In this document: positions 63,696-64,000 of the stretch, in pieces
How the letters are laid out: each line of letters begins with the position of its first letter
Numbering within the stretch: the first letter of the stretch is position 1
Source: Escherichia coli
GTDB taxonomy: Bacteria; Pseudomonadota; Gammaproteobacteria; Enterobacterales; Enterobacteriaceae
Assembly (NCBI RefSeq): GCF_003334815.1
Contig: NZ_QOWO01000003.1
Direction: 5' to 3' (one strand)
DNA length: 64,000 nucleotides
The notes under the pieces: generated by a model
The model's input: only the letters and a program-made list of their open reading frames with translations
Database searches by the model: none
What the model was told of the DNA's origin: nothing
Position numbers and translations under genes: made by a program

Positions 63696-63930
63696 GATCG
63701 CTCCATATTTTTAAGAACAGGTTATCCACAGAAATTGGGAAAGGCGTTTTCCGGTTTTTTCGTTTCGTTTTCCGGTGCTTTCCGCAATCGCCATCCGCTT
63801 ATCCACAACGCCGCACCTTTTTCGTGGGGAGCTGTAGTAGCAATTATAGTCGATTAATACAACATATTGGGTTGGGACGCATTTTAAAGTCTATATATAG
63901 TGCTTTGCATCAAGGATGTTTGAACTTTTT

Positions 63931-63944
63931 TTGATGTAGCTCAA
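63931..63944. promoter_or_regulatory. candidate FNR site upstream of nrdDG
   Basis: ttgat-gtag-ctcaa, one mismatch to TTGAT-N4-ATCAA, about 235 bp upstream of nrdD start. Confidence 0.35.
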
Positions 63945-64000
63945 AGTAAAAAGCAGAGCGTACGGATGACGGGCGCTACAGCGTTATGTAAATTTTTTAA

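Follow-up and report, generated by a model that had tools for sequence, protein, structure and literature searches.

FNR, NrdR and DnaA sites upstream of the nrdDG operon in an Escherichia coli strain other than K-12

The closest described system to the locus considered here is the nrdDG promoter of Escherichia coli K-12, work on which reportedly includes that of Boston & Atlung in 2003 and of Roca et al. in 2008. It is the same locus, with identical FNR sites 1 and 2, NrdR boxes, -10 hexamer, leader and DnaA boxes. Over positions 63650-64000 of the stretch analysed here (351 aligned bases) the present strain departs from K-12 MG1655 by two single-nucleotide polymorphisms (SNPs), one at 63924 (G in K-12, A here), between the two FNR sites, and one at 63984, both of them outside the recognised sites. 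The FNR-activated promoter of nrdDG is already known in detail, and the occupancy, the affinities and the genetic hierarchy of its two FNR sites have all been measured in K-12, that is, with G at 63924. Site 1 has its centre at -33.5 and site 2 at -64.5, as quoted in PMC10425943, whose authors describe the mechanism of activation, through contact of FNR with RNA polymerase, as 'a remaining mystery'. Class II FNR promoters share with nrdDG the activator, the 14-bp operator TTGAT-N4-ATCAA and the response to anoxia, but in this majority class the site is centred at -41.5 (Myers et al. 2013) instead of at -33.5 and -64.5. In the set of Myers et al. (PMC3688515), the start is known for 23 directly activated promoters, of which 19 carry the site at -41.5 ± 4 and one at -60.5.

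Two further groups of described sites invite comparison. The NrdR operators of nrdAB and nrdHIEF, like that of nrdDG, consist of a pair of 16-bp palindromic boxes, separated by a 15-bp linker (a 31-bp pitch), that overlap the core promoter; nrdDG differs from them in that its upstream box also overlaps the site of an activator, FNR, by 4 bp. The DnaA-bound double boxes at nrdA, purH, polA and datA (PMC11317965) each have a weaker box 2-3 bp from a perfect TTATCCACA and are occupied in ChIP-seq, as is the double box at nrdD. At nrdD, unlike those four loci, the boxes lie not upstream of the promoter but within the transcribed leader, beside the ribosome binding site.

The DNA analysed here (the window) is a stretch of 64,000 nucleotides of E. 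coli chromosome from a strain other than K-12. In the open reading frame list its final 6 kb carries, in order, mpl, yjgA, pmbA, cybC, nrdG and nrdD, of which cybC, encoding cytochrome b562, is an intact reading frame of 128 aa (60504-60890), whose counterpart in K-12 MG1655 carries a pseudogene annotation. The 157-bp spacer between nrdD and nrdG contains two imperfect palindromes of REP/BIME-like appearance, at 61445-61486 (GCCTGATGCGACGC...) and 61504-61533 (GCCGGATAAGGCGT...). A 501-bp query covering 63500-64000 found matches in all 5,426 of 5,426 complete E. coli RefSeq genomes, with at least 99% identity in 5,227, and these were always directly upstream of an annotated nrdD. The next gene upstream of nrdD is treC, both in MG1655 and in a strain identical to the window over 63500-64000; 393 bp separate the stop codon of treC from the start of nrdD, so that about 90 bp remain between the end of the window and treC. 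The region studied, 63696-64000, is the nrdD-proximal 305 bp of this spacer, and there is little doubt that it represents the promoter and leader of the nrdDG operon, activated by FNR as published. Its features, with those of the genes that it serves, are as follows.

61557-63695, minus strand: nrdD, class III (anaerobic) ribonucleoside-triphosphate reductase, 712 aa (open reading frame, and RefSeq annotation of the strain identical over 63500-64000).
60935-61399, minus strand: nrdG, activating enzyme, second gene of the nrdDG operon (open reading frame and RefSeq annotation).
63931-63944, no strand assigned: FNR site 2, TTGATGTAGCTCAA, read in the nrdD sense as TTGAGCTACATCAA; centre at -64.5 from the published start.
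63900-63913, no strand assigned: FNR site 1, GTGCTTTGCATCAA, read in the nrdD sense as TTGATGCAAAGCAC; centre at -33.5.
63888-63903, no strand assigned: upstream NrdR box, core CTATATATAG at 63891-63900, with a 4-bp overlap with FNR site 1.
63881-63886, minus strand: putative -10 hexamer TAAAAT, -13 to -8, within the 15 bp that separate the two NrdR boxes.
63873, minus strand: literature-implied transcription start, A on the sense strand, the sole position that fits both of the quoted offsets, -64.5 and -33.5.
63857-63872, no strand assigned: downstream NrdR box, core CAACATATTG at 63860-63869, covering +2 to +17.
63696-63873, minus strand: 5' leader of nrdDG, 178 nt, from the literature-implied start and the ATG at 63695.
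63799-63807, plus strand (antisense to nrdD): perfect DnaA box TTATCCACA, +67 to +75, invariant in 22 genera.
63711-63730, plus strand: double DnaA box TTAAGAACA-gg-TTATCCACA, 16-35 nt upstream of the ATG, with the perfect box at 63722-63730.
63701-63704, minus strand: Shine-Dalgarno sequence GGAG of nrdD, invariant in the alignment, its last G 5 nt before the ATG.

The initial annotation, made from the letters of the window, had picked out the inverted repeat at 63931-63944 as close to the FNR consensus, and nine of ten positions of site 2 do agree with TTGAT-N4-ATCAA. Taken by itself this agreement would leave room for a chance near-match without function: the bare consensus TTGATNNNNATCAA, with at most one mismatch, occurs four times in the window against 2.25 expected, a count reached in 21 of 100 shuffles, and with at most two mismatches there are 44 matches. 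Counting matches to the bare consensus cannot distinguish site 2 from chance, so a position weight matrix (PWM) was required. A symmetrised matrix was built from 62 ChIP-seq-backed sites that Myers et al. 2013 give in their Table S6 (PMC3688515), with the nrdD site left out. Site 2 scored 17.94 bits with this matrix, which favours near-consensus sites because its training sites had passed a PatSer threshold beforehand; none of the 63,987 positions scored higher, and the per-position p of 4.3e-7 corresponds to about 0.03 such matches expected per window. The site is a 14-bp inverted repeat that scores above the genome-wide threshold; the lack of a significant FNR site on such a scan had been named at the outset as the outcome that would speak against the annotation, and the opposite was found. 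The second-best score in the window, 17.3 bits, belongs to TTGATATAAATCAC at 19060-19073, inside a minus-strand open reading frame of 91 aa (18915-19190), and two weaker matches follow it at 19247 and 19272.

Published binding data fall on exactly this DNA. Myers et al. 2013 (PMC3688515) list the same 14-mer for nrdD, at 4460919 of NC_000913.2 and under an FNR ChIP-seq peak, with a PatSer score of 15.68 and an ln p of -14.45 (threshold -10.75). When the coordinates were converted (NC_000913.2 plus 1,977 bp to give version 3, minus a window offset of 4,398,965), 4460919 became window position 63931, the first base of the motif, and the K-12 ChIP-seq summits at 4460925 and 4460936 (PMC3688515) became 63937 and 63948. 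Expression ratios of 0.36 for nrdD and 0.27 for nrdG, given in one supplementary table of Myers 2013 (PMC3688515), are consistent with lower expression without FNR. Site 2 lies 236 bp before the nrdD-nrdG unit, whose anaerobic induction and dependence on fnr are taken from the literature.

For the comparative analysis, 80 nrdD loci were retrieved from Enterobacterales, and the 310 bp upstream of nrdD were aligned across 22 genera of Enterobacteriaceae as a phylogenetic footprint. In this alignment both FNR sites, both NrdR boxes, the -10 hexamer, the DnaA boxes and the Shine-Dalgarno sequence are invariant or nearly so, and the intervening sequence varies freely. Site 2 appears as TTG..CT..TCAA, invariant or nearly so, with the positions TTG...ATCAA invariant. 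This retention of the core while its flanks drift, together with the top PWM score in 64 kb, a partner site exactly 31 bp away, and published ChIP-seq and in vitro binding (PMC3688515, PMC10425943), reduces a functionless coincidence at 63931-63944 to a negligible likelihood. Much the same can be said of the idea that the palindrome is bound mainly by some other member of the CRP/FNR family, such as CRP itself. The N4-spaced inverted-repeat layout is common to CRP and FNR sites, but both half-sites here are of the FNR type, TTGA/TCAA, and not the CRP core GTGA/TCAC, and the FNR ChIP-seq and FNR-binding studies span precisely this DNA; we give such a reading almost no credence. Both readings are excluded for practical purposes.

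With 63931-63944 taken as an FNR operator, its distance from the gene can be considered. The A of the ATG is separated by 236 bp from the near edge of the site and by 242.5 bp from its centre, in keeping with the figure of about 235 bp given originally, from which a long leader or additional, closer elements had been surmised, a second site not being clearly resolved by eye. Both surmises were borne out. The leader, measured from the start implied by the offsets in PMC10425943, is 178 nt long, which accounts for the separation of FNR site 2 from the ATG; and FNR site 1, at 63900-63913, is the closer element. Site 1 agrees with the consensus at eight of ten positions (two mismatches) and scores 10.78 bits (rank 9, p = 5e-5), which is below the lowest-scoring training site (11.96); besides site 2 it is the only position within 63696-64000 to score above 3 bits. 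It lies downstream of site 2, with the two centres, 63906.5 and 63937.5, exactly 31 bp apart.

The pair corresponds to the dual-FNR promoter already described, with which it shares the 31-bp separation, the positions at -64.5 and -33.5 and the sequence itself. A 54-bp oligonucleotide of the K-12 nrdDG promoter that carries both motifs binds two FNR dimers as judged by SEC-SAXS (PMC10425943), and is the reverse complement of window 63897-63950 except at the 63924 SNP, so that 53 of 54 bases are identical. The PWM score, the 14-mer under the ChIP-seq peak and this FNR-bound 54-mer all accord with the annotation's view that the site fits the anaerobic induction of nrdDG. A megablast search with the 54-bp module returned 2,999 genomes at at least 99% identity, with exact identity among the 10 matches listed; alleles that break the 28-base word are invisible to such a search, so the other genomes are uninformative. 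The GTDB representative of E. coli (locus L003) has further changes within both FNR sites, which there read TTGAGCTAAATCAA and TTAATGCAAAGCAC. Between the FNR sites the sense strand carries an invariant CAAAC at 63918-63922, about -45 to -49, which in many genera forms with the left half of site 1 the palindrome CAAACATGTTTG.

The NrdR boxes that the initial annotation had suggested looking for were found as a pair, at 63888-63903 and 63857-63872. The pattern CWANATNTWG-N21-CWANATNTWG, which has a 31-bp pitch, has a single occurrence in the window (63860-63900; 0.03 expected), and the locus thus has the layout of a NrdR regulon operator, namely two tandem 16-bp palindromic boxes about 31-32 bp apart, centre to centre, in an nrd promoter. 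The boxes flank the putative -10 hexamer. E. coli NrdR with ATP and dATP binds a 57-mer with a KD of 160 nM (PMC12176259), and that 57-mer is identical to window 63853-63909. The upstream box, as CACTAyATATAG, is invariant in the 22 genera, and the downstream box is likewise a conserved block. Competition between NrdR and FNR where the box overlaps FNR site 1 has been proposed in a study of Salmonella (PMC2892513).

The transcription start is placed at 63873, which corresponds to 4462838 in K-12, by the offsets quoted second-hand in PMC10425943, and we infer it from these. Of the 22 aligned genera, 21 have a purine (A or G) at this position and Mangrovibacter has T; the position falls 7 nt downstream of TAAAAT at 63886-63881, which is probably the -10 hexamer of the nrdDG promoter and is conserved as TA[A/G]AAT in 22 of 22 genera. 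A consensus promoter scan of the region found nothing on the nrdD strand, as would fit a promoter that depends on an activator. The scan did give a promoter-like match on the plus strand, TTGGGA-18-TATAGT at 63872-63901, directed away from nrdD; it was rejected as weak, made up of NrdR-box sequence and of a kind that occurs at chance-level frequency. Among genome-wide start-site data, the supplements of Salmonella dRNA-seq and of SMRT-Cappable-seq studies hold no entry for nrdD, and searching the literature for anaerobic dRNA-seq of E. coli yielded nothing usable.

Neither FNR site has the placement of a class II site, at -41.5 ± 4 and overlapping the -35 region, or lies at -61.5, and this non-canonical geometry of -33.5 and -64.5 is the main residual doubt about the account of the nrdDG promoter. 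There is also a perfect TATAAT at 63843-63848 on the minus strand, +25 to +30 of the published start and with no -35 partner, which is conserved as TAnnnT in 21 of 22 genera (TATAAT in E. coli; TGTTAT in Mangrovibacter, the exception). Were this the working promoter, the FNR sites would be real but transcription would begin near 63836, the sites would be activator positions of the class I type at about -70.5 and -101.5, and the downstream NrdR box would cover the -35 region. Such distances are nearer to the classical class I spacings than are -33.5 and -64.5, and the single FNR site of other families, described below, precedes the first NrdR core by 30/31, 42-44 or 53 bp, values that differ by roughly one helical turn each. 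Against this, the hexamer has neither a -35 nor an extended -10, TA[A/G]AAT at 63881-63886 is equally conserved and fits the published start, and the mapping, as quoted in PMC10425943, puts the sites at -33.5 and -64.5. It is on the published mapping and the equal conservation of TA[A/G]AAT that we hold initiation from the downstream hexamer to be improbable. The TATAAT at 63843-63848 could be a second promoter, or part of a site that has gone unrecognised.

For the 178-nt leader, a cis-regulatory leader RNA (a riboswitch or attenuator) was considered and rejected: a search of the leader against Rfam gave no match at E ≤ 1, its fold has an unremarkable z-score of -0.75, and no consensus RNA structure emerged across the 22 genera (-1.46 kcal/mol, 0 compensatory pairs). 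Rfam run on the full K-12 treC-nrdD spacer likewise returned sub-threshold noise only. Conservation of the leader acts on DNA and not on RNA structure. The two perfect DnaA boxes in the leader, at 63722-63730 and 63799-63807, are the only ones in the 64-kb window. DnaA ChIP-seq published in 2024 places a peak at nrdD with 62-fold coverage over control and assigns it the double box tTTAAGAACAggTTATCCACAg (PMC11317965), which is window 63710-63731. The peak coordinate, 4462739, fits version 3 numbering only and then falls at window 63774, between the two perfect boxes. The leader holds a cluster of DnaA boxes, two of them perfect 9-mers, under a ChIP-seq peak, with the in vivo occupancy known from the literature.

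In the 22-genus alignment the remaining conserved blocks are TGTGGATAA, the double DnaA box as TGTGGATAACCTGTTyTT, GGAG and the ATG. The spacing of the FNR sites is conserved as well: allowing at most two mismatches per site, it is exactly 31 bp in 44 of 50 loci (L003-L052), and the other six show one site at that stringency. In most genera of Enterobacteriaceae site 1 reads TTGATGCAAATCAC, which at 15.5 bits is a better match than site 2; in E. coli and E. albertii site 1 is weakened to 10.8 bits and site 2 is strengthened. Across Enterobacterales as a whole, an FNR site of 10.8-19.7 bits is kept in 79 of the 80 nrdD upstream regions, the exception being the E. coli representative L003, where weakness is confined to site 1.

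Outside Enterobacteriaceae, in Serratia, Yersinia, Pectobacterium, Dickeya, Brenneria, Hafnia, Edwardsiella and Budvicia, there is a single strong FNR site. The first NrdR core follows the start of this site at 30/31, 42-44 or 53 bp (L053-L082, for example L066:1331-1460, L055 and L069), and these spacings, differing by steps of about one helical turn, fit an upstream activator whose action depends on the face of the helix. On this comparison of sequences, the conservation of one upstream site in other families appears to fit the genetic primacy of site 2, and site 1 would be an addition specific to Enterobacteriaceae. A sense-strand double DnaA box, TTATCCACAnnnnCATCCACA, directly abuts the downstream NrdR box in these other families, which suggests that DnaA input is old and that its placement differs between families.

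The account of the promoter with the best support is the one already published from K-12. Under anoxia a [4Fe-4S] FNR dimer binds the strong site 2, at -64.5, and another the weaker site 1, at -33.5, on the same face of the helix, and the bound FNR activates a promoter that probably has TAAAAT as its -10 and lacks a usable -35, with transcription starting at about 63873. Repression comes from NrdR at the two boxes that flank the -10, one of which overlaps FNR site 1; NrdR bound there would block RNA polymerase and probably also compete with FNR for site 1. The DnaA boxes of the leader, occupied by DnaA in vivo according to work in K-12, would supply a third input.

It is tempting to suggest that nrdDG is wired to these three signals throughout the order, by an ancestral FNR site held at helical-turn distances and supplemented in Enterobacteriaceae by site 1, by the nucleotide-pool signal of NrdR, and by leader DnaA boxes. 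We regard this as a tentative proposal, more likely to need revision than to stand as it is. As part of it, the strength of site 1 may have been traded against that of site 2 in Escherichia. Since nearly all genera keep perfect DnaA boxes within the leader or beside it, DnaA may act as a roadblock in the leader or occlude the initiation of translation; if so, it would couple the anaerobic supply of dNTPs to the state of the replication initiator. The helical phasing of the lone FNR site and the order-wide DnaA boxes lend modest support to the view that the FNR geometry and DnaA binding in the leader alike are real, selected features. As for the operator itself, a real and experimentally validated site was recovered from raw sequence, and this part of the analysis brings no new biology.

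Conservation extends beyond the sites so far named. Past position 64000 (L002:3960-4010) there is a partly conserved TTGTTGAAT(A/T)ATTAATCAG, for which Rfam gave sub-threshold noise only and whose E. coli form is TTGTTGATTTTTCAACCAG. Within the region, upstream of FNR site 2, two blocks are partly conserved, GCGCCCGyCAT..GTAC at 63956-63975 and TTTACA at 63987-63992.
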